A stretch of 64,000 bases of DNA, from positions 4,332-68,331 of IMG/VR virus record IMGVR_UViG_3300021373_002652; one strand, written 5' to 3'. The translations under genes and the position numbers were made by a program. The DNA comes from a virus. Its lineage: Duplodnaviria; Caudoviricetes. Shown piece by piece: positions 10,520 to 50,377 of the stretch. Position 1 is the stretch's first letter; each line of letters starts with the position of its first letter. Under the pieces are notes generated by a model. The model was given only the letters and a program-made list of their open reading frames with translations, did not search any database and was not told where the DNA came from.

Positions 10520-10527
10520 TATAAATA
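10520..10527 (-). promoter_or_regulatory. Putative late promoter TATTTATA
   Basis: 21 nt upstream of the 1920-aa gene; a second copy at 10535-10542. Confidence 0.55.
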
Positions 10528-21014: not shown

Positions 21015-22718
21015 TTAAAGTATTGTTTTTTTCAAGATGTAATTACCAAGAACTAAAATATCCATTTCACAATTAAGGAATGTTTTAATTGCATCCTCTG
21101 GTGTTAAAACCATTGTTTGGTCTTTTAAGTTGAATGAAGTATTAATAACAATTGGATATTCATTATCCTTTTCAAGTTGTTCTAATAAGGAGTATATTCT
21201 TGGTTGAGATTTAGAATCTAAACTCTGTATTCTTGCTGATTTATCAATGTGAGTTATAGCTGGAAGTTTATTTACAAATTCATCTTTAACCTTAACCACT
21301 TGATTCATATAAGGAACAACTCTTTGATATTTAAAATATTTTACTTGTGATTCTTTTTTAACTATTGGAGCAAATGGTCTAAACCCCTCTCTCTTCTTAA
21401 TCATTTTATTTAGTCGAGATTTCATTTGAGGGTCTCGTGGGTTTGCTAATATAGAACGATTACCCAATGCTCTTGCACCAAATTCCATTCTACCCTCAAA
21501 CCAACCAATAATATTTCCATCAGTAATTTCTTTTGAAATAGTTTTTATCAATAAACTATCAACAACATACTCACCATAAACATATTTAGTATATCTATCT
21601 ATTACATTTTTAATTTCAGTTTTAGAATACTCTGGCCCAAGATATGGATTAGTATTTATTTTTCTCAACGATACATTGTTTGTATAATAGTGATGAAGAG
21701 CACATCCAATAGAAGAACCAGCATCAGATGGAGCAGGTGGAATCCATAAATTATTATATGAGGTTTGTTTTAATATCTTTCCATTAGCCGTACCATTATA
21801 AGCACACCCACCACTTAAACATAAGTTTCGTGATGGTGAAAGTTCGTAGGCATGATTTACTAAATTAAAAAAGTATTTTTCGTAAATAGATTGTACAGAT
21901 GCCGCTAAATCTTTATGTTCTTGTGTTAGTGGTTCTTCGGGTAATCTATTTTCTATTCCAAGTTCCATTCCAAGTTTTTCATTAAACATATGTGTATCTG
22001 AATACTCGTATGTAAAAAACTTCATGTTTAATTTAAAACCACCATCATAAGTATCTTCAATAATAGAAGAAAATCTATCTATGTATTTAGAAGAATCTCC
22101 ATATGGAGCTAATCCCATCATTTTATATTCACCCTCGTTTGGTTTGAATCCAAGGAAAGCAGTCATCGCTGAGTAAAACATTCCAAGTGAATGTGGGAAT
22201 TTAATAGATTTTAATTTTTTTAAGGTGTTTCTATTTCCTTCATATATCGTAGTTGTTTCCCACTCACCAACACCATCAACAGAAACAATAATAGCATTAT
22301 TATATGGTGAAGTATAATAGGAATATGCGGCATGAGATAAGTGATGTTCGTAAAAAGAAACAGTTGTTTTGTTACCAACATAAGAATTAATATCTAACAT
22401 TAAATCTTGATAAGATATTGTATTTCTTTTAACAATATTTCTTCTGTTAAAATAATTTAGTATTCCACCTTTTTTTGTAGAGGTTTCAATCCTATCTAAT
22501 TTTTCAATAGGAGATTCGTAGAAACAAATTGCTTCTAAATCATTTTTGGTAACATTAAATTCTTTTAATAACCACTTAATTGTATTATGTGGAAAGGATG
22601 AATCGTGTTTTATGCCTGTAAATCTTTCTTCTTCACATCCTCCTAAAACAATTCCATCTTTAATTAAAGAGGCGGCCGAATCGTGATAACCACAACTAAT
22701 TCCTAATATATAACCCAT
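21015..22718 (-). CDS. Carbamoyltransferase (NodU/CmcH/TobZ family)
   Basis: YHDSAA, EEERFTGIKH, EHHLSHAA, DGVGE, EYKMMGL, EFGARALGNRS, REGFRPFAP, NTSFN. Confidence 0.95.
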   Translation of the reverse strand: MGYILGISCGYHDSAASLIKDGIVLGGCEEERFTGIKHDSSFPHNTIKWLLKEFNVTKNDLEAICFYESPIEKLDRIETSTKKGGILNYFNRRNIVKRNTISYQDLMLDINSYVGNKTTVSFYEHHLSHAAYSYYTSPYNNAIIVSVDGVGEWETTTIYEGNRNTLKKLKSIKFPHSLGMFYSAMTAFLGFKPNEGEYKMMGLAPYGDSSKYIDRFSSIIEDTYDGGFKLNMKFFTYEYSDTHMFNEKLGMELGIENRLPEEPLTQEHKDLAASVQSIYEKYFFNLVNHAYELSPSRNLCLSGGCAYNGTANGKILKQTSYNNLWIPPAPSDAGSSIGCALHHYYTNNVSLRKINTNPYLGPEYSKTEIKNVIDRYTKYVYGEYVVDSLLIKTISKEITDGNIIGWFEGRMEFGARALGNRSILANPRDPQMKSRLNKMIKKREGFRPFAPIVKKESQVKYFKYQRVVPYMNQVVKVKDEFVNKLPAITHIDKSARIQSLDSKSQPRIYSLLEQLEKDNEYPIVINTSFNLKDQTMVLTPEDAIKTFLNCEMDILVLGNYILKKTIL

Positions 22719-37767: not shown

Positions 37768-38433
37768 CTATGCATAAGCTGCTAATAATCTTAGTATTTC
37801 ATCTAATGATTCATGTCTGTGATTATCCAATAAACTTACAGCATACACATACTTAGATTCCTTTACTTTTGGAACTTCATGTATTGCTGAATCATTAGCA
37901 AACTTTAAATCAATCTGTTGTGGGTCACCAGTAAGAATCATAGTTGATTTTTTTCCCAATCTACCTAACACCATACTAAGTTGTTGTTTCGTTAAGTTTT
38001 GAAACTCATCTACAATCACACACGCATTATCAAATGTTCTACCTCTAAAGTGGGATAACGATACTAACTCTATGTTTTCATCCGATTCCATCTTCTGTAA
38101 TATAGTTGGTTTATTGTAAACCTTTCTCATATTAGAACGAATAGGTACTAACCATGGCTCCATCTTTTCATCAAGTGAACCCGGTAAATATCCATTATCT
38201 TCATTTGATACAGTTGGTCTTGTTATTACTATTTGATTTATCTTACGAGTAAAAAACATATCCAATGCTATCTGTACTGCAAGAAGTGTTTTACCACTAC
38301 CAGCTTTACCCATTACGAAGTTATACGGATGGTATAAGATATTTGTCTTTGCCATCTTTTGTTCTTCTGATAGGGTTATTGAAAACTTTACTTTACCTTT
38401 AGGTGGGTTTTTACTAATGTTCTGTGTTGCCAT
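37768..38433 (-). CDS. phoH: PhoH-family ATPase
   Basis: GKAGSGKT, ITRP, GYLPG, RGRTF, DEFQN, TGDPQQ, HRH. Confidence 0.95.
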   Translation of the reverse strand: MATQNISKNPPKGKVKFSITLSEEQKMAKTNILYHPYNFVMGKAGSGKTLLAVQIALDMFFTRKINQIVITRPTVSNEDNGYLPGSLDEKMEPWLVPIRSNMRKVYNKPTILQKMESDENIELVSLSHFRGRTFDNACVIVDEFQNLTKQQLSMVLGRLGKKSTMILTGDPQQIDLKFANDSAIHEVPKVKESKYVYAVSLLDNHRHESLDEILRLLAAYA

Positions 38434-38968
38434 TATTCTCCTTTATAAAATTAAAATCATACCAACCCACTTTATAGCAAATGTGAATTGATTTCTCGTT
38501 CCAAGTGTCAGCGTGTGAATACAAACAATCGATTCCATCATACTCTAAAAACTTTTTTAAAGTTAAATGATACATACTAACTCCACATCCTTTTGGTTTG
38601 TTTTTGAGTTTTTGAGTAACAAACGCACCACCAACAAACATTTCATTTGATTTGAGAGGTTGATACATTTCTTCCCAAAGTGGTGTGTGGTTATGATTAC
38701 CCCACATCCAACCAATTGGAGAATTATTGTAATAAAATAAATGTACTGAGGAGTTGTGTGTTTCGAACCTACTATGTAGCATAAGTTCATCAGGAATTCC
38801 AACCCAATCAAAATCTCGTTTCATTAAATCTGAAACGTAGAGGAGCTCATGAATATAATTATTATAGTTTTCTTTGTTTATTAAAACTATATTATAATCT
38901 TCCAAGATTTCGAAAGGAACTAAACTTTCTTTCGTAAGTTTTAGTTGTATTATTTTGGTTGTATCCAT
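38414..38968 (-). CDS. GNAT-like acetyltransferase
   Basis: PIGWMW..FVGGAFV..KGCG..ADTWNEKSI..KVGW motif A/B-like pattern. Confidence 0.6.
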   Translation of the reverse strand: MDTTKIIQLKLTKESLVPFEILEDYNIVLINKENYNNYIHELLYVSDLMKRDFDWVGIPDELMLHSRFETHNSSVHLFYYNNSPIGWMWGNHNHTPLWEEMYQPLKSNEMFVGGAFVTQKLKNKPKGCGVSMYHLTLKKFLEYDGIDCLYSHADTWNEKSIHICYKVGWYDFNFIKENNGNTEH

Positions 38969-38987: not shown

Positions 38988-38995
38988 TATAAATA
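38988..38995 (-). promoter_or_regulatory. Putative late promoter TATTTATA
   Basis: 20 nt upstream of the GNAT-like gene. Confidence 0.45.
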
Positions 38996-38997
38996 TA

Positions 38998-39813
38998 CTA
39001 AATCATCCTAAATTTGTTATCGCCATCTAAAATAGATTTTACCACATCCCTACAACCTTCCATAAATTTAATTTCACCAACCCAATGGTCGTATGTTTTA
39101 TGGTTTAAGCTTTTTAAAGCAGATGCCTTTAATTTATGATATGTTATTAAATTACCAAAATGATATTGACAAACTATTAGAGAAGGTAACATTCCTTTTT
39201 TTCTAAATTCAAAAGAGGTATCTATTTTATTTAAATAAAAATCTTTAAGCTCATAGTAACCATCTAAAAGAATATCTTTAGTTTTTTGATTGTTAAATTT
39301 TATAAAACCAACGTTCCATGCAACCATATTGTGATAACTAAACTCTGGAATATATTTTTCAGTATCTGCATCTTTGAATATATCTAACATAGTATTATAT
39401 CCATTTTGCATATCGAATTTTTTACTAAGAGGACCGCCTTTTTTTGTTTCTTTATATTCAAACCAAACATCATCAGTATTTGGTGGTAGTTTTAATTTAT
39501 TTGTTAAAATGATATCACCATCAAATGTAACACAATCCAAATCATTATTCTTATGTATCCATATTTTTAAATCATCTAATAATTCAAATTGAATATTATC
39601 AATACAGATACAAGAATCATAATAACCATCAAGTTCTTTTATAGAAAGACTATCTCCGTAGAACCTAATTCCATATCCATACTTTTTCGCACGAATCATA
39701 GAAGCTTTATACATATCATATATGTATTTCTTATCAGTATGCCATGTGGTACGCATATCAGACTCTTCATCATACCAACCCATTCTATTATCGAAACTAT
39801 ATGTTAAAGTCAT
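38998..39813 (-). CDS. GT-A-like nucleotide-diphospho-sugar transferase-like protein (DUF6734-like)
   Basis: FYGD, TFDGDII (DxD), WNVGFI, Y.HW.G. Confidence 0.6.
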   Translation of the reverse strand: MTLTYSFDNRMGWYDEESDMRTTWHTDKKYIYDMYKASMIRAKKYGYGIRFYGDSLSIKELDGYYDSCICIDNIQFELLDDLKIWIHKNNDLDCVTFDGDIILTNKLKLPPNTDDVWFEYKETKKGGPLSKKFDMQNGYNTMLDIFKDADTEKYIPEFSYHNMVAWNVGFIKFNNQKTKDILLDGYYELKDFYLNKIDTSFEFRKKGMLPSLIVCQYHFGNLITYHKLKASALKSLNHKTYDHWVGEIKFMEGCRDVVKSILDGDNKFRMI

Positions 39814-40721
39814 AAGATTGTTTTTGGTTTACTAATATTTTTAATTTGTAAATTAATATCTTTTAGAAACAAACTTTTTTTATTTTTATTTTTTAGTAAC
39901 TCAGATTTTTCTAACCATACATGATAGTATTTTAAATCTATAACATCTGAGTTTTTATAGTACATCTTATGAGGTACTATTCCATATTTTATTTCTTGCT
40001 GTATTCTCTCACCATCTTCTATGTACATGAATGGTTCTAAACAAGCTACCTTTGATTTTAATTTTCTAAAAGTAAATGGTAATATTCCTTGGTCTGCCAT
40101 TAACCAAATTGATTCATCTACTTTAGTTAAATTTTTATTGTAAATTATAGATTCATGTAGTTTCCAATATTCAGATAATAAAGTTGTATTATTTATATAT
40201 AAAAAACTTGTATTGGGATATAACATACCAGTATAGTAGTATGGTAGGTTTAGTGATTTTAGTTTTGACTCATCTACATAAAATTTATTTCTTTGTAATT
40301 CCCATTGAGTATGCACACAATCATATTTTTTAAACTCATCTATGTTAAAATAATCTTTTACAATAAAATCTAAATCTAAAAAAGTAAAGGGTTCTGTTTG
40401 ATTACATATTACATATGTTTTACCACTTGTCCAAAAATATCCTTTATTAAAATTTAATTTATTAAACTCGTTTAACAAAGTAATATCAACATTATCGTAA
40501 TAGTCAACTAATCCAAGTTTTGATAAATAATCAAATCCATTTGTATCTGTATATAATGTTGTTTCCCCAACATATTTTTTTGCACTTAATGCAGATAGTT
40601 TTTGGATTTCTATTTCAAAATCATGTAGTTTAATTATTTCTTCTGGATTTCTATCTTTATTATATCCTTTTGATTCAGAAGAAAACATAGGTTCTGACCA
40701 GAATACAAAAATAGATTTCAT
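39810..40721 (-). CDS. GT-A-like nucleotide-diphospho-sugar transferase-like protein (DUF6734-like)
   Basis: LYTDTNG, FWTSGK, EPFTFLDLDF (DxD), PNTSF, ADQ, YYHVW. Confidence 0.65.
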   Translation of the reverse strand: MKSIFVFWSEPMFSSESKGYNKDRNPEEIIKLHDFEIEIQKLSALSAKKYVGETTLYTDTNGFDYLSKLGLVDYYDNVDITLLNEFNKLNFNKGYFWTSGKTYVICNQTEPFTFLDLDFIVKDYFNIDEFKKYDCVHTQWELQRNKFYVDESKLKSLNLPYYYTGMLYPNTSFLYINNTTLLSEYWKLHESIIYNKNLTKVDESIWLMADQGILPFTFRKLKSKVACLEPFMYIEDGERIQQEIKYGIVPHKMYYKNSDVIDLKYYHVWLEKSELLKNKNKKSLFLKDINLQIKNISKPKTIL

Positions 40722-41455
40722 AATAATTTATTTTTAGAAACTTTACTTGCGTGTAAGTTAAAGTTAATTACAGCTCTTTCTGATTTACCATAAAAGGGCT
40801 TTACTGAATGTACTATATCAGATGGCCATATTATTAACATTCCCTTTTTTGGTCTAATCATGTATTGTCTATCTCGTTCATGAAAAGCAAATACACCACT
40901 ATATGGATGGTCTGGTAATGGTTCACCATCACTCAAATAATATCCTCCACTAAAAGATAAATTCGTTTGTTCATCTTTACTCCAACGAGAATGATTGTGT
41001 TGGTTGTGTCCTAACCCACTTGTTGGTTTATAATATTGTAACCAACTTTCTGTTATTATTGATTCTTTTACGATGATATCAAAATCAAGAGAGTTTATTA
41101 AGTTTTTAAATCCTAATTTTATTCTATCAACAACATCTAAAACACAATCTTCAGTTCTATTTAAAAAATCATTTGGAGGGGTAAAGAACCTACTACCTAT
41201 TGGCATTTGAGAATCGGATTCTACCCAATTTTCTTTTCTATCATAATTTATATTGTAATAACTATATCTCTCATCATCATATTTTTCTGGTAGTTCTTGG
41301 CCCATTTTTTGTTGGCCTTCTGATAATACTTCCTTCCCTAAAGAAAATAATTTATCTGATAACTCATCATCATATTGTTTTATGTAGAGTGGGATTGGTG
41401 CAAGATAAAAAATATTATCTTTATCTGAAGAATAGTAACCTTTATTAAAATACAT
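40718..41455 (-). CDS. 2OG-Fe(II) oxygenase
   Basis: ESW..Y, QHNH, SGGYY, LIIWPSDIVHSV, RAVINFN. Confidence 0.85.
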   Translation of the reverse strand: MYFNKGYYSSDKDNIFYLAPIPLYIKQYDDELSDKLFSLGKEVLSEGQQKMGQELPEKYDDERYSYYNINYDRKENWVESDSQMPIGSRFFTPPNDFLNRTEDCVLDVVDRIKLGFKNLINSLDFDIIVKESIITESWLQYYKPTSGLGHNQHNHSRWSKDEQTNLSFSGGYYLSDGEPLPDHPYSGVFAFHERDRQYMIRPKKGMLIIWPSDIVHSVKPFYGKSERAVINFNLHASKVSKNKLL

Positions 41456-41614
41456 TTACGAATGTTTATCTAAAACATAAGAGAAAAAATTGCTCATGAT
41501 TCTATTAACTTCTGTTTTTTCTGCAGAAGATACAGAAACAGTATACGAACCACTATGATGATTATCAATTGATTTGTAAATTAATTTCTTTATGTCATTT
41601 TTCTGTATAGCCAT
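41456..41614 (-). CDS. 52-aa peptide (not in track)
   Basis: Hand translation MAIQKNDIKKLIYKSIDNHHSGSYTVSVSSAEKTEVNRIMSNFFSYVLDKHS; fills the gap between two genes exactly. Confidence 0.65.
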   Translation of the reverse strand: MAIQKNDIKKLIYKSIDNHHSGSYTVSVSSAEKTEVNRIMSNFFSYVLDKHS

Positions 41615-41618
41615 TTTT

Positions 41619-43328
41619 TTATGTCGAGGGTTTTAGTTTATTGTTGTGTACAATTGCAGATAAACTTGTTTGTACTTGTCCTTCTGTATCATTTGCCAAT
41701 ACATAGTTATCTTCTGTTTCAACATCTATTTCATGAAACGAACCTGTGTTAACATTTAAGATATGAACACTTGAAGTTAAAATTGGAATTAGGTTAGAAT
41801 TATCATCAAAGAAATAATGGTCATCTTCATTTATAGCTACAACATTTTTAAATTTAAATTCATTAGATGAACTTTCGTATATTAATGCAATAACATCAGT
41901 TGACATATAGTTTGATTCATCACTACCACTAACTCTTAACTCATATATTATATGGTCTGTCATTTCATGAGTATAAGGGTCTGATACTACAAGTGATGAG
42001 GTATATGAAGAATTAGCAGGTAGAGTAGGACCAGATACAGAAACGTTCATGAAGTGTGCACTTAAATCTTCATCATCTGTAATATTAGGTATATAAAATG
42101 ATTTTACAATAGAACCACTTATCACATCTTCAATATCAACAAGGTCTCCACTTGCTGATACAAGAGTTTCAGTTTCATATATACCTCTTTTTACTCTTCT
42201 TTCTTTTATATAGGAAGTTGAAAACTCATGATAATGTTTTTGAGTATAGTGCTCATCATCAGTAAATGTAAAATCAAAATCAGCATAAGTTGGTAATTGT
42301 AATACACTCTTTCCAGATACAGTTCCCAATGGTAAGTGATTCAACTCAGAACCATATACAATACCATAATGTCTTAATGAAGTTACATGATTATCTACAA
42401 TAGAACCAGTACCATATAGAAAATTAGTATAGTAAACATGAGAATCTAATTCTGAGTTACTTATGAAATCATTAATACGAGATTCATCATACTGAGAACC
42501 CGTTTCTATACTTCCTTGAACCCATACATAATTTGGTTGTAAATCAGGATTTGGATTATACTCACCAGTATCAACATCTTCCCAATATAAAGGTTCATAT
42601 CTACCACCAAGTAAAACATGAGTACCTGTAACTTCTTCCGAAGCAGATACAAAACTACCATCTACTAATCCATGAGTACCCACAATTGTAGCATTATTAT
42701 AATAACTACCAGATATTTTAACATGAGTAGGATTTGAACCAGTAACAAATTCTCCGTCTTTACGATGTCCTCTTACTTTTAAAAATGAAACTGTACTAAT
42801 TGACCATTGATTTTTTAAAACAATATCAGGATAAATACCAGGATTTGTTTTTCTTTCTAAAGTATCAACAACCATATCAGATGAAGAAATGTAAAACGGT
42901 GCACAATCACTCGAAGCGGTATATTCATTAAATAGTGATAATGAATTTACATCATGTTTAGCATATACAGAATCTACAACCGCGTTTTCATCATACGCCA
43001 TTCTAAGAATAAACTTATTACTTGCATCTGAAACTGATGTTGGGTATATTGTATCTGCAGATTCTTCATGTTCTACCCAAGTTGTAATAAAAGATGCGTT
43101 ATCTCTAATACTTTCTGAAATGTGATTTACAATCGCTTTCTGAAATTGAGGTTTATATATTACTTCAAATGTATCTATTGATTGGCTTTGTAATAAAGAT
43201 ATTAAGCCCGTATAATCTAATCCATTATCGAGTACATTAAATACATCAGTAGTATCAGTATTAAGTTCTAAAAACTTTATACCGTTATCTGTTTTTACGA
43301 AATCAGCTGAGAAAAATGTTCCCTTCAT
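41619..43328 (-). CDS. Circularly permuted ATP-grasp-like protein fused to a C-terminal Hint-like domain
   Basis: N-terminal SADF..GIKFLELNTDT, then LRMAYD, PDIVLK, SLRHYGIV; C-terminal GIYETETLV..DIEDV..G..VKS ... HEIDVETEDNYV..IVHN. Confidence 0.6.
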   Translation of the reverse strand: MKGTFFSADFVKTDNGIKFLELNTDTTDVFNVLDNGLDYTGLISLLQSQSIDTFEVIYKPQFQKAIVNHISESIRDNASFITTWVEHEESADTIYPTSVSDASNKFILRMAYDENAVVDSVYAKHDVNSLSLFNEYTASSDCAPFYISSSDMVVDTLERKTNPGIYPDIVLKNQWSISTVSFLKVRGHRKDGEFVTGSNPTHVKISGSYYNNATIVGTHGLVDGSFVSASEEVTGTHVLLGGRYEPLYWEDVDTGEYNPNPDLQPNYVWVQGSIETGSQYDESRINDFISNSELDSHVYYTNFLYGTGSIVDNHVTSLRHYGIVYGSELNHLPLGTVSGKSVLQLPTYADFDFTFTDDEHYTQKHYHEFSTSYIKERRVKRGIYETETLVSASGDLVDIEDVISGSIVKSFYIPNITDDEDLSAHFMNVSVSGPTLPANSSYTSSLVVSDPYTHEMTDHIIYELRVSGSDESNYMSTDVIALIYESSSNEFKFKNVVAINEDDHYFFDDNSNLIPILTSSVHILNVNTGSFHEIDVETEDNYVLANDTEGQVQTSLSAIVHNNKLKPST

Positions 43329-43351
43329 ATTGTACGTTTCCTTTTACTTTA

Positions 43352-43359
43352 TATAAATA
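43352..43359 (-). promoter_or_regulatory. Putative late promoter TATTTATA
   Basis: 24 nt upstream of the gene starting at 43328, before an AAGGA RBS. Confidence 0.55.
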
Positions 43360-43366
43360 TACTAAA

Positions 43367-43756
43367 CTAAAGTTTTATAGTTTTAGTTACAGATTGTCTC
43401 TGTCTTTGTCTTTTAATGAAGTTAGTTTTATACTTACTAACAAGGCTACACGCTTCATAGTTTTCTTTCTTTTCAAAAAACTTTGTGGCAATATCATAAA
43501 CTTCCATATACTCATCTTCCTTGATTAATATTGCATTTCCAGCGTTAGGATGAACAATTAATACAATTTTCTTTCTACCATTTTTATTAGCAAAGTTTAC
43601 AGCTCGTGTAAGTTCAGTAAATACTTGATTACCTCTTGATTCAAGAAATCGTTTTATCCTTGGATTATCGGAATCTTCAATAAGATATTTCCTCCAATCT
43701 ACTGTATTGAGTAATTGTGGTGTCATTATATTCTCTCCCATTTGTTTCTTTTCCAA
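43367..43756 (-). CDS. Hypothetical protein with UVR-like C-terminal helix
   Basis: ENYEAC motif; start may be MTPQ at 43726. Confidence 0.55.
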   Translation of the reverse strand: MEKKQMGENIMTPQLLNTVDWRKYLIEDSDNPRIKRFLESRGNQVFTELTRAVNFANKNGRKKIVLIVHPNAGNAILIKEDEYMEVYDIATKFFEKKENYEACSLVSKYKTNFIKRQRQRQSVTKTIKL

Positions 43757-44460
43757 ACAAAGCCATCACGAACTTCAAATGGATATCTACCTCTTCCCGA
43801 TGGTGATGTTCCTGTTTGTTCATTTCTTCTTCCAAAAAGACCTCTTCCACTTCTTCTTCTTCCACCTCCACTACCACTGTTAGAAATACTATTAGAATTG
43901 ATTCTCGGATATAATTTACCTTGAACTCTTCCTGCACTATATCTACTTCTTGATATTATTTTCCAAGCTGTACCATCCCACTCCTGATATGTTCCACGAC
44001 TAAATAAGGTTCTATTTGGATTTCTACGAACATCACCTCTTGATGGTCCTGATGTTGGTGGTGTTGGTGGTGGTGTTGATGTTGTTGTAGTTGAGTCTGC
44101 AACTGTTTCAACCACCGGAGTTGCTGTTTTTACACTTTGGGGAGGTGTTGTTTCTCTTGAAGGTTCTTGTACTTGTTCTTTTTCTTCTGGTGTTGGGATT
44201 TCTTGAGGAATGATTGAAAGGGTTCTCAATGAAGCGGCGGATGAGATTGATTCTTTATCTGCAGCTCCATATATTCCATTACCATTACCATCATGATTTA
44301 TTAGATAAGTGCAAAACTTATCAATACTTGGTGTACTTGAAATCTCATGATTTACTGTTACAGAGGCAATTTTTTCCTTTTCAGCAAATTGTTTATAGTA
44401 ATTTACTAATGAAGGAGCAATACTTTTTAGTATATCTGGATATTTACTTGAAAAACTCAT
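43726..44460 (-). CDS. Hypothetical late protein with Pro/Thr linker and Arg/Gly-rich tail
   Basis: 244-aa ORF; TATTTATA at 44466-44473. Confidence 0.6.
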   Translation of the reverse strand: MSFSSKYPDILKSIAPSLVNYYKQFAEKEKIASVTVNHEISSTPSIDKFCTYLINHDGNGNGIYGAADKESISSAASLRTLSIIPQEIPTPEEKEQVQEPSRETTPPQSVKTATPVVETVADSTTTTSTPPPTPPTSGPSRGDVRRNPNRTLFSRGTYQEWDGTAWKIISRSRYSAGRVQGKLYPRINSNSISNSGSGGGRRRSGRGLFGRRNEQTGTSPSGRGRYPFEVRDGFVWKRNKWERI

Positions 44461-49286: not shown

Positions 49287-49883
49287 TTAATTAAAATTTA
49301 CATTCCAACTTATTGATATTCTTTTTTTATCTGTGGAATTGTATTGTAAACTCCCATGCTTTAACCAAGATGGAAATGATATCATCATCCCTTCTTGTGG
49401 TTCAATATGTATTTGTGGAGCTAATAATTCATTATCCGATTCTGGTAATAGTTTAGCTAAAGTATCAATTGGTGATTCTATTACAAACTCTCCACCTTTG
49501 TTTTCATCTATTGATATATAAAGTACAGCGGAGAATCCATTCGATACATTACCTGCTCCAATATGGTCATGTAACTCTTGAAAAGCACCATCTCCTCCAA
49601 GAGTAATCCAACAATCCTCAATATAAAATGGTTTTGGCTTGAACCCACACTCCACAATATATTCTGATGTGTGTTTTATAATTGTATCTTTTAGGTAATC
49701 AGGAAAGAATTCTTTTCCTTCTTCACAAAAAATATTTGTTCTTGTATTACACTTCCATTGATTTGTTTTAAATAAATCATCATTATCTTTAATGTATTTA
49801 GTAATATCTTTTTGAAGAGTTTTTAATACCTCCTCATCTATACTTGTATAATATACAGGTGTTGGAAATAAATTATTTATCAT
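49287..49883 (-). CDS. 2OG-Fe(II) oxygenase (TIGR02466-like)
   Basis: LFPTPVY, HDH, SAVLYI, FPSWLKH, RISISWN. Confidence 0.88.
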   Translation of the reverse strand: MINNLFPTPVYYTSIDEEVLKTLQKDITKYIKDNDDLFKTNQWKCNTRTNIFCEEGKEFFPDYLKDTIIKHTSEYIVECGFKPKPFYIEDCWITLGGDGAFQELHDHIGAGNVSNGFSAVLYISIDENKGGEFVIESPIDTLAKLLPESDNELLAPQIHIEPQEGMMISFPSWLKHGSLQYNSTDKKRISISWNVNFN

Positions 49884-50377
49884 AATAAGTTTTCTTTTGA
49901 TTTAAAGAAGATAACTAAAACCTTTCGTATTCCTCTTGTTATTTTAGTAACTTCGTGTCTGTGTTTGTGTCCATCTAACATCACATACTCACCTAAGTTA
50001 GATAACCCAATATCATTATCTTCTATTAAAAATTTACCTCCATCAAAATCATCAGTTAATAATATAATGGTAACACTTCTTAAGAAATCTTTATGTTTTG
50101 CTGAAAAATCTCCAACTCTATATTCCATTGTATATAAAGATTCAACTATGTTGTTTTTGGAAAACTTGTTGGATAACCAATTATTAAGTATTTCGTTTTT
50201 TGTATTATATACTTCGAAAAGAGTTGGGTTTAAACCACTTCCATTATTTAAAATATATGGATGAGTTTCTGTCCATTCTTCTTGTGCTTCTTCAGGTGTA
50301 AGAATTTTAGTTTGATTCAGTTGTTCTAATAAAAAACTTAATTCTTCGTTTGATAATATATCTTTAGTGTAGTTCAT
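49880..50377 (-). CDS. 2OG-Fe(II) oxygenase (prolyl-hydroxylase-like)
   Basis: YRVGDFSAKHKD, DDFDGGKF, HEVTKITRGIRKVLV. Confidence 0.85.
   Translation of the reverse strand: MNYTKDILSNEELSFLLEQLNQTKILTPEEAQEEWTETHPYILNNGSGLNPTLFEVYNTKNEILNNWLSNKFSKNNIVESLYTMEYRVGDFSAKHKDFLRSVTIILLTDDFDGGKFLIEDNDIGLSNLGEYVMLDGHKHRHEVTKITRGIRKVLVIFFKSKENLL

Follow-up and report, generated by a model that had tools for sequence, protein, structure and literature searches.

Which function is served by five abutting minus-strand genes of an uncultured marine phage, and how much of their arrangement is conserved? We addressed this for a stretch of 64,000 nt (hereafter the window) of the IMG/VR virus record IMGVR_UViG_3300021373_002652. 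The genes encode a 569-aa protein (g569), a 52-aa protein (p52), a 2OG-Fe(II) oxygenase and two glycosyltransferase-like enzymes. An earlier note, made from the sequence alone, had interpreted g569 as a permuted ATP-grasp enzyme with a Hint-like C-terminus, and the five genes as a late-expressed pathway for the ligation, hydroxylation and glycosylation of a peptide or of virion proteins, with p52 as a possible substrate or partner subunit.

Gene block and conserved gene pair

The ORF listing of the window confirmed the five genes as one block, with junctions that abut or share 4 nt (Table 1). The motif described upstream of the first gene is present, and a second copy lies 20 nt ahead of the 184-aa gene; a motif scan of the window revealed no copies between the two. 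The number of bare motifs is at chance level (20 matches vs 16.9 +/- 4.1 in shuffles). Sixteen of the 20 matches are on the + strand, and 12 of these 16 precede a minus-strand ORF start by no more than 36 nt, in the extended context ATATTTATAT(A).

Table 1. Location of the analysed features in the window
Feature	Position	Strand	Description and basis
Promoter-like motif	43352..43359	(-)	+ strand letters TATAAATA, TATTTATA in gene sense, extended ATATTTATATA; 24 nt before g569 ATG
g569	41619..43328	(-)	569-aa protein, unnamed phage family; ORF listing
g569 residues 8-93, glutathionylspermidine-synthase-like segment	43050..43307	(-)	D9, K18, E21, N23, D25, T26; hhalign
g569 residues 190-280, insertion	42489..42761	(-)	Present in the window protein; BLASTP gaps/split matches vs aligned homologs
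g569 residues 385-563, degenerate Hint domain	41640..42176	(-)	Terminal H561-N562; hhalign
p52	41456..41614	(-)	52-aa partner protein; ORF listing
2OG-Fe(II) oxygenase	40718..41455	(-)	245 aa, lineage-specific; Pfam, PHROG
Putative glycosyltransferase, GT8-like/DUF6734-like	39810..40721	(-)	303 aa; family A2 alignment, hhalign
Putative glycosyltransferase, GT8-like/DUF6734-like	38998..39813	(-)	271 aa, DGD motif D98/D100; hhalign
GNAT-like neighbour gene	38414..38968	(-)	184 aa, follows the five-gene block; own motif copy 38988-38995

The 52-aa ORF proved to be a real gene and a conserved partner of g569. Searches with the family HMM covered 80 IMG/VR loci, whose g569 homologs form 53 groups at 90% identity. 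In 79/80 loci exactly one p52-family ORF (~50 aa) follows the g569 homolog directly; the lone locus without it is a 1-kb stub. The p52 start lies 4 nt past the g569 stop in the window and 1-15 nt behind it in most loci. An alignment of p52 sequences showed an invariant Tyr13 and His51, a K50 that is at least 90% conserved, a variable, Ser/Thr-rich middle and a conserved helix-like stretch at the C-terminus, which ends K-H-S in the window and K-H-[S/L/T/M] in the family. None of 179 database relatives of p52 has a functional name or a Pfam match. Together, g569 and p52 are a conserved, phage-only two-gene module, hitherto undescribed, of which the window holds one lineage's version.

The expectation of conserved linkage among homologs thus held for the g569-p52 pair, but not for the oxygenase and glycosyltransferase-like genes, which are lineage-specific. 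Among the 80 loci, the complete set recurs only in a 97-99% identical contig (L001), the sole locus in which the oxygenase adjoins a g569 homolog. The 303-aa gene is found again in L001 and in one further locus (L002), whose g569 is 65% identical and from which the oxygenase is already gone. Members of the 271-aa (DUF6734-like) family occur in 16/80 loci, P4H-like 2OG oxygenases in 65/80 and radical SAM genes in 36, and 25 loci carry a SET-domain gene at +2, straight behind the pair. Lineages without the enzymes of the window have P4H-like oxygenases, SET-domain, radical-SAM and methyltransferase genes in their place, and in many loci the pair stands without an adjacent oxygenase or glycosyltransferase. 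Conserved, then, are the pair and its habit of sitting among modification enzymes of varying kinds. Since the downstream enzymes are variable or absent, a shared pathway with g569-p52 is not required.

A single pathway of all five genes would agree with their tight block without internal motif copy, with the identities of the oxygenase and the GT8-like enzymes (see below) and with the genes of the same superfamilies near the pair in other loci. The restriction of the full set to nearly identical contigs and the many pairs without such neighbours argue against it. Moreover, similar islands of modification enzymes occur in marine phages without g569 too, in line with the result that 0 of 50,697 phage records matched g569. 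We consider a five-gene pathway improbable.

The gene neighbourhood also evokes ribosomally made peptides (RiPPs), with p52 as precursor, g569 as a cross-linker in the style of graspetide ATP-grasp macrocyclases and the variable neighbours as tailoring enzymes of a bioactive peptide that is secreted or stays inside the cell. In favour of such a role, the gene of a small, conserved peptide adjoins a ligase-like gene and lies near those for radical SAM, SET, methyltransferase and oxygenase proteins, and p52 combines a conserved C-terminal stretch with a variable middle. However, the conserved residues of p52 are not the Thr/Ser plus Asp/Glu expected at cross-link positions, which speaks against p52 as a graspetide/RiPP precursor. 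In Pfam, graspetide-type ATP-grasp families were unmatched by the g569 family, and a Pfam search of the window block detected no protease or exporter gene. This explanation appears highly improbable.

Sequence features of g569

Profile searches with g569 revealed no Pfam family at E <= 1 and no PHROG match. Among the candidates scored, 420 homologs from metagenomes were detected at E <= 1e-3, with 195 representatives at 50% identity. Residues 190-280 are missing from those homologs that were aligned by BLASTP. The motifs previously pointed out were located at residues 7-26 (SADF..KFLELNTDT), 167-172 (PDIVLK) and 317-324 (SLRHYGIV). An alignment of 50 sequences showed 16 invariant N-terminal columns (M1, K2, G3, S7, D9, E21, N23, T24, D25, K59, R109, Y112, D119, Y122, P167 and K172).

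The proposed permuted ATP-grasp fold found support in one part of the protein. Comparison of residues 8-93 with the GSP_synth family by hhalign gave probabilities of 38-72% (E 3.6e-5 to 3.3e-4, ~80 columns), whereas in one of these runs 13 control comparisons with reversed or unrelated alignments scored 10-17 (E 0.15-0.83). D9, E21, N23, D25 and T26 of g569, which are 91-100% conserved in 241 sequences with D9, E21 and N23 invariant, coincide with D, E, N, D and T of the glutathionylspermidine (GSP) synthases (73-97% conserved in 30 sequences, 97% for D, E and N). The protein therefore possesses an acidic/Asn block, D...E-x-N, of putative metal-binding type. Weak Pfam matches to GSP_synth were detected for 3 of 50 N-terminal domains of the family (best E 0.06) and to ATPgrasp_ST for 1 of 50. 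In a language-model Atlas the nearest named clusters were ATP-grasp families, where scores below 0.9 throughout make this a lead at most.

The remainder of the fold was not recognised. For residues 95-372, where PDIVLK and SLRHYGIV are located, none of the GSP_synth, RimK and GshA profiles gave a match (E >= 0.24), so the ATP-binding half of an ATP-grasp enzyme is unseen in g569. No match to the GSP_synth HMM (PF03738) reached the curated cut-off, PDB profile searches returned no ATP-grasp chains, and hhalign with E. coli YgiC alone or with close orthologs yielded just 3-5% probability. The method is weak at such distances, because it also missed the links of GSP_synth with RimK and with GshA. 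On these comparisons an ATP-grasp-type N-terminus is partly supported.

The Hint-like C-terminus, in contrast, was confirmed. Alignment of this region with true Hint domains of 25 homologs gave a probability of 97.2% (E 4e-11, 137 columns), while PDB matches to intein/BIL chains were weak (E 1e-4 to 4e-3) and no Pfam Hint model matched the g569 of the window itself. At the domain end, N562 is invariant and H561 at least 90% conserved in 63 sequences. The Cys/Ser/Thr nucleophile is absent from the domain start; its position is held by R381-G382-I383-Y384, with G382 at least 90% conserved. Because this nucleophile is lacking, the domain carries an insertion of ~25 residues and just 7 residues follow it, the Hint domain of g569 cannot splice; at most, an Asn-dependent C-terminal cleavage is conceivable. 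Some homologs contain 1-3 extra true Hint domains, canonical C...HN modules recognised by Pfam; we confirmed one locus with two further copies and one with a single one. Others end in a Peptidase_S74 domain, which is typical of trimeric phage fibres. These extra modules start right behind the conserved HN.

The modular ends raise the question of whether g569 has a structural role or is associated with the virion, as a fibre, decoration or baseplate-attached protein. Self-cleaving Hint domains (0-3 per homolog) or the S74 chaperone domain would then be folding aids, p52 a small assembly chaperone or adaptor, and the D..ExN block either a metal-binding site or a remnant. The lack of any enzyme profile for residues 95-372 is consistent with this, as is the promoter-like motif that g569 shares with long genes in the baseplate-wedge part of the window, for example at 10520 before a 1920-aa ORF. 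However, the invariant positions, mostly charged or polar, begin at residue 1 and fall within the N-terminal 190 residues, and the similarity of this region is specifically to a ligase family. In addition, g569 is flanked by dCMP-deaminase-like and PhoH genes, away from the baseplate wedge gene in another part of the window, and no PHROG structural family matches it. A structural role is rather unlikely on balance.

Neighbouring enzymes

The identity of the 2OG-Fe(II) oxygenase was corroborated by matches of the 245-aa protein above the Pfam cut-off of 27 bits to 2OG-FeII_Oxy_5 (PF13759; 32.1 bits) and 2OG-FeII_Oxy_3 (PF13640; 29.2 bits), and by a match to phrog_81 (E 2.3e-17); a match to TIGR02466 stayed below cut-off. 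The two downstream proteins, described before as paralogous DxD enzymes of GT-A type, do belong to one alignable, GT8-like family (A2) with a DGD motif in which D98 and D100 are invariant, but BLASTP detected no similarity between them (E 0.22). Alignment of family A2 with GT8 (PF01501) gave an hhalign probability of 80.7% (E 1.3e-5, 138 columns; 9 controls scored at most 22). DUF6734 was matched by 8/19 members, and by the 303-aa protein below cut-off (E 2.2e-5). Since no Pfam GT8 match of the family reached the cut-off, GT8 membership of both proteins is provisional.

The 184-aa gene has its own motif copy as reported, whereas its GNAT identity relies on weak matches: Acetyltransf_1 in Pfam (E 0.064) and, in a PDB profile search, acetyltransferases as 15 of 22 weak matches, all with E >= 0.07. 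Its family has 24 members in 24 sources, the gene of the window included. In 11 loci, other lineages among them, a member lies at +2.

Proposed function and comparison with known systems

We tentatively propose, with a probability of roughly 40%, that g569 is an amide-ligase-like enzyme that acts on or with p52 and is surrounded by variable tailoring enzymes. Its first ~90 residues would correspond to the Mg/substrate-binding D..ExNxDT segment of the GSP-synthase-type carboxylate-amine ligases of the ATP-grasp superfamily. The N-terminal region looks catalytic, and the C-terminal Hint domain appears to have lost its nucleophile while keeping His-Asn. As the presumed obligate partner, p52 would most likely be a peptide ligated to an amine via its carboxylate, at the conserved ...K-H-x C-terminus, or via a side chain; alternatively, it may serve as a small carrier or tag. 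The oxygenase and the GT8-like enzymes would be accessories of particular lineages, which may further modify this product. The ligase reading is supported by the 16 invariant columns together with the GSP_synth similarity, and the tailoring part by the protein-type modifiers that abut the pair in other lineages. It is weakened by the fibre-type Peptidase_S74 ends of some homologs.

The hydroxylation and glycosylation of collagen and Skp1, to which the block had been likened, resembles it by analogy of gene order only, an oxygenase gene being followed by glycosyltransferase-like genes; the oxygenase of the window falls into the PF13759/TIGR02466 group. The likeness of the 271- and 303-aa proteins to GT8 extends to the DxD, NxG and HxxGxxK motifs. 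With inteins, BIL domains, Hedgehog Hog domains and pretoxin HINT domains, the C-terminal 180 residues of g569 share homology and the His-Asn end, but differ from canonical Hint domains in the missing N-terminal residue and the insertion. Tandem arrays of 1-3 C-terminal Hint domains have to our knowledge not been described, and literature searches found no description.

In gene arrangement, g569-p52 is reminiscent of systems in which a ligase gene is paired with a small protein or the ligase acts on its C-terminus. LysX pairs with LysW, whose tethered product is then handled by additional enzymes, and RimK acts on the C-terminus of ribosomal protein S6. The C-termini of LysW and S6 are acidic, unlike that of p52, which weakens the case for p52 as substrate; p52 also has no zinc-ribbon cysteines, and the profile similarity of g569 to RimK is not significant (E 0.35). 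A further parallel for g569 and p52 may be YgiC/YjfC, which an excerpt of PMC12568646 cites as peptidyl-polyamine synthetases with a peptide substrate; an excerpt of PMC3249071 places GspS, RimK, LysX and TTL in the ATP-grasp superfamily. Unlike the GSP synthase family (PF03738: E. coli Gss, YgiC, YjfC), in which the block lies near residue 90, g569 has it from residue 8; the alignment covers just ~80 of the 371 family positions, Pfam searches give no match, and the remainder of the domain cannot be recognised. The g569 protein also differs in its fusion to a Hint-like domain, of which we know no example in that family. The two nevertheless align over the D-x(8-9)-[KR]-L-L-E-x-N-x-D-T block with the next ~70 residues, and in both the block sits ahead of the remaining catalytic region.

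Linkage of p52 to the g569 family

The main finding of this analysis is the small ORF p52, which encodes a 52-aa protein directly downstream of g569, the gene for a 569-aa protein with a D9...E21-x-N23 block at its N-terminus. For the analysis of synteny, 147 IMG/VR loci with a confirmed g569 homolog were collected and the best 80 of them were kept, which represent 53 distinct g569 groups at 90% identity. Gene clustering in these best 80 of the 147 loci placed a 45-55-aa ORF directly downstream of the g569 homolog in 65 loci, and a divergent one in 4 more. A profile built from 50 such downstream ORFs detected exactly one copy directly downstream of the g569 homolog in 79/80 of the same loci, the only exception being a 1-kb stub. 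The unannotated ORF, in which the earlier note had suspected a substrate or partner subunit, is thus borne out as a real partner gene. Its start lies 1-15 nt past the g569 stop in most of the best 80 loci. Members of the p52 family are 43 to 63 aa long and, in 56 of the 79 loci, end in K-H-[L/S/T/M]; their alignment showed invariant Tyr13 and His51, with Lys50 conserved at at least 90%. All 179 database relatives are called 'hypothetical protein' or are nameless, none of them has a Pfam match, and a PDB profile search revealed no solved relative of p52.

The g569 protein itself matched no Pfam or PHROG family, and the same holds for its homologs without a Hint domain. Among the candidates scored, 420 relatives or clusters were detected at E <= 1e-3, and the family comprises 195 representatives at 50% identity. 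Where these are named at all, they are called 'hypothetical protein' or, once, 'intein/homing endonuclease'. All full-length relatives start with MKGT. In an alignment of 63 sequences, M1, D119 and N562 are invariant and K2, G3, D9, E21, N23, T24, K59, R109, K172, R319, G382 and H561 nearly so. BLASTP comparison with homologs showed that the N-terminal ~190 residues and the part from residue 280 to the end are common, whereas residues 190-280 form an insertion absent from the homologs compared. In titles and abstracts of the literature on ATP-grasp, Hint and BIL proteins in phages the g569 family does not appear.

Domain relationships of g569 and the accessory enzymes

The earlier note had taken the N-terminal ExN block for the hallmark of a circularly permuted ATP-grasp ligase. 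Alignment of g569 by hhalign with E. coli YgiC alone, or with 23 close orthologs, paired just the ExN block at 3-5% probability. The YgiC relatives recovered were all at least 77% (search) or at least 86% (genome scan) identical and hence too alike, so diverse GSP synthases were drawn from 201 sampled Pseudomonadota genomes, 29 of which contributed the 30 proteins of the comparison set. With this set, g569 residues 8-93 aligned to GSP_synth family positions 92-174 with a probability of 38-72% (E 3.6e-5 to 3.3e-4). Thirteen control comparisons with reversed or unrelated alignments reached 10-17 (E 0.15-0.83), whereas the true pair scored 41. In this part of g569, the most conserved residues (D9, K/R18, E21, N23, D25 and T26) coincide with the most conserved GSP_synth positions. 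Weak Pfam matches of N-terminal domains from the family pointed to GSP_synth in 3/50 and to ATPgrasp_ST in 1/50 cases. In the protein Atlas, the closest clusters with a name were GshA, GSP_synth, YheCD/TTL and ATP-grasp_3, with scores of 0.84-0.87 that are to be read as leads only; the top one, GshA (PF08886), was rejected for want of profile similarity to g569. Residues 95-372, which include the PDIVLK and SLRHYGIV stretches highlighted in the earlier note, matched no profile, and PDB profile searches with the g569 alignment or the N-terminal domain alone detected no ATP-grasp chain. The identity of g569 as an ATP-grasp protein of the GSP-synthase type is therefore partly supported: the resemblance of residues 8-93 to GSP_synth stands, but the remainder of the proposed fold matched nothing, and neither Pfam nor PDB returned an ATP-grasp match.

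These comparisons are to be read with the reach of hhalign in mind, which is blind at superfamily distance and likewise did not link GSP_synth to RimK or GshA. RimK was also tried as a relative and rejected; its best local alignment placed g569 residues 7-29 on the RimK C-terminal ExN block, as a permutation would predict, at a non-significant E of 0.35. A passage in PMC3249071 lists GspS in the ATP-grasp superfamily beside RimK, LysX and tubulin-tyrosine ligase, and a passage in PMC12568646 cites Pederick et al. 2023 for YgiC and YjfC as peptidyl-polyamine synthetases.

The Hint-like nature of the C-terminus was confirmed by hhalign of family residues 372-564 against genuine Hint domains from 25 homologs (97.2%, E 4e-11, 137 columns); the PDB profile search with the g569 alignment gave weak intein matches only. 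In the window protein, R381-G382-I383-Y384 fills the position of the Hint nucleophile and 7 residues remain beyond the invariant His-Asn. Because of this substitution the domain, as judged from its sequence, cannot initiate splicing or N-terminal cleavage; Asn-dependent C-terminal cleavage would be conceivable. Many homologs extend past the His-Asn with canonical Hint domains, which start with C-F-x-x-G-T and end with V-H-N. Pfam detected one, two or three Hint domains in the homologs scanned, or a Peptidase_S74 domain instead. Counted by length in the best 80 of the 147 loci, with Pfam checks in six, 9 homologs carry no extra module, 29 one, 32 two and 9 three, and one is a stub. The 910-aa homolog of locus L015 displays three tandem canonical Hint domains behind the conserved core, each with a Cys start and a His-Asn end; to our knowledge C-terminal Hint arrays of this kind have not been described. 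The 911-913-aa homologs of L018, L019, L022-L026 and L045 likely carry three tandem Hint domains too, by their length alone.

The main rival to a ligase draws on the same modules. It holds that g569 is a self-processing structural protein and p52 its small chaperone, and is consistent with the S74 and Hint modules of the homologs and with the unrecognisable middle region of g569. With the GSP_synth resemblance of residues 8-93 on the other side, we consider it possible, if doubtful.

The 245-aa protein of the operon passes the Pfam cut-offs for a 2OG-Fe(II) oxygenase, which verifies its identity. The two following proteins of 303 and 271 aa, proposed as DxD GT-A-like paralogs, are not similar to each other by BLASTP, but a single family alignment accommodates both, and in it D98 and D100 are invariant. 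By hhalign this family resembles 23 GT8 proteins (80.7%, E 1.3e-5; nine controls at 22 or less each), with the motifs DxD, NxG and HxxGxxK aligned between the two. The only Pfam family touched was DUF6734, matched by 8 of 19 members, and a PDB profile search with the family gave nothing relevant.

Operon, changing neighbours and phage setting

The ORF listing agreed with a block of five minus-strand genes, which abut or overlap by 4 nt. The upstream motif that had been seen before them is present as well; its reading as a sign of late expression is conjectural.

Features of the window discussed in the text
Feature	Position	Strand	Details
g569	41619-43328	-	
p52	41456-41614	-	
245-aa 2OG-Fe(II) oxygenase	40718-41455	-	
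303-aa GT-like protein	39810-40721	-	
271-aa GT-like protein	38998-39813	-	
Motif before g569	43352-43359		TATTTATA in gene sense; first ATG (g569) 24 nt further on
Extended motif, examples	2644, 10520, 18197, 20455, 38988, 43352, 58393	+ (coordinates)	upstream of minus-strand starts
Nol-like carbamoyltransferase	21015-22718	-	phrog_1601, E 2e-118
244-aa ORF	43726-44460	-	upstream of operon; Ser/Thr/Pro/Gly-rich, low-complexity runs
Second small P4H-like 2OG-Fe(II) oxygenase	49880-50377	-	outside operon; island-oxygenase profile, E 2.7e-23

The next copy of the motif lies 20 nt before the 184-aa GNAT-like gene (start 38968). Its total in the window is at chance level (20 versus 16.9 +/- 4.1 in shuffles); 16 of the 20 copies are on the gene strand, 12 of these 16 at most 36 nt away from an ORF start, and the ORFs concerned include some from the part holding the baseplate wedge gene. 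An extended form, ATATTTATAT(A) in gene sense, precedes the starts of many minus-strand genes by 5-36 nt; it resembles a phage-specific promoter, although its sequence is the reverse complement of the T4 late consensus TATAAATA. Because of its strand bias and its closeness to ORF starts, the motif is a plausible candidate for a phage-specific promoter element. Scans for sigma-70 promoters and terminators gave chance levels only.

Conserved linkage of the five genes, as expected for a single pathway, was not observed: among the best 80 of the 147 loci, the full block was found elsewhere only in L001, where it is 97-99% identical. Already in L002, with a g569 homolog of 65% identity, the oxygenase is missing, and the 271-aa family is present in 16 of the 80 loci. 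Different enzymes surround the pair in other lineages: in 25 of the 80 loci the +2 position is occupied by a SET-domain gene, whose start often coincides with the p52 stop; 27 loci have small 2OG oxygenases (cluster 6) and 36 have radical SAM genes, and the HxD...H...R consensus revealed a family of 150 P4H-like oxygenase genes in 65. The second oxygenase of the window matches the profile of the family that fills these islands in related phages. The GNAT-like gene directly follows the pair of g569 and p52 in 11 of the 80 loci, with PhoH next in nine. Further island genes encode methyltransferases, an APS-kinase-like protein, a weakly GDSL-like family and a carbamoyltransferase (cluster 14); in other lineages the last of these is separated from the downstream pair by a few genes. 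Loci L004, L005, L017, L061 and others carry a trio of APS-kinase-like, small cytidylyltransferase-like and DUF2061 membrane protein genes just upstream of the pair, which suggests sulfate activation in such islands; one 190-aa island family looks sulfotransferase-like from its N-terminal motif alone.

As the pair occurs with varying or absent accessory neighbours, the accessory enzymes are optional. Any functional link to the pair is inferred from adjacency, and these islands may be no more than sites where genes are readily gained. The single pathway of the earlier note, in which a late five-gene operon ligates, hydroxylates and glycosylates, is weaker than the structural explanation and distinctly unlikely. 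A RiPP-like reading is weaker than the structural one, too, and most improbable.

The source viral record is 68 kb long with an estimated completeness of 39%. The window is AT-rich (~30% G+C), and holds nearly all genes on its minus strand. Its products include a baseplate wedge protein and PhoH as well as a helicase and a carbamoyltransferase. Cultured phages are only remotely related, the nearest being Flavobacterium phage vB_FspM_immuto (PhoH 48% and baseplate wedge 38% identical) and Microcystis phage Mel-JY01 (46% and 41%). The 244-aa ORF upstream of the operon, without a Pfam or PHROG match, diverges fast (88% identical in L001, 37% in L002).

DNA nearly identical to the 2-kb core is present in 14 runs of seawater or marine metagenomes, which belong to 12 studies. 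Six metatranscriptome runs contain 20-35% of the words sampled from 41400-43400, a share not counted as proof of transcription. Among 50,697 deposited phage records, neither a DNA search with the region nor a protein search with g569 revealed a match. The sole match of g569 in genomes of 185,579 prokaryote species was a 2.8-kb contig (L165), which was binned with a Cyanobium MAG and is probably phage DNA, so that the g569 family appears confined to phages. Some carriers may infect picocyanobacteria, given the binning of L165. DUF6734 was found in 0/301 sampled Pseudomonadota and, among 14 control genomes, in Bacteroides thetaiotaomicron only; together with the Flavobacterium host of the nearest cultured phage, this distribution gives a faint hint of a Bacteroidota host.

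Interpretation and comparison with known systems

The best-supported reading, to which we assign a probability of about 40%, is that g569 is a fusion of a GSP-synthase-like amide ligase with a dead Hint domain, which would work on or with p52 and be accompanied by lineage-specific tailoring enzymes. A more specific proposal, which we regard as rather unlikely, is a new type of phage tagging or carrier system. Here the ligase with its Hint-derived domain would activate the C-terminus of p52, which would then be linked to an amine, be it a polyamine, a protein lysine of the host or the virion, or an intermediate of biosynthesis. The changing oxygenases, SET methyltransferases, radical SAM enzymes and glycosyltransferases would modify the tethered product. 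The invariant His-Asn might take part in this chemistry by yielding a reactive C-terminal succinimide, or cleavage.

The g569 family is abundant yet without a functional name. Marine phages carry many orphan genes for 2OG oxygenases, SET proteins and radical SAM enzymes for which we know of no role at present; an enzyme-like protein with a strictly linked 50-aa partner amid such protein-type modifiers would offer a concrete substrate candidate. We know of no earlier case in which the GSP-synthase-type ligase family is joined to Hint chemistry, and titles and abstracts of the literature revealed no joining of this kind. If the preferred ligase reading is true, g569 would bring this ligase family together with Hint chemistry.
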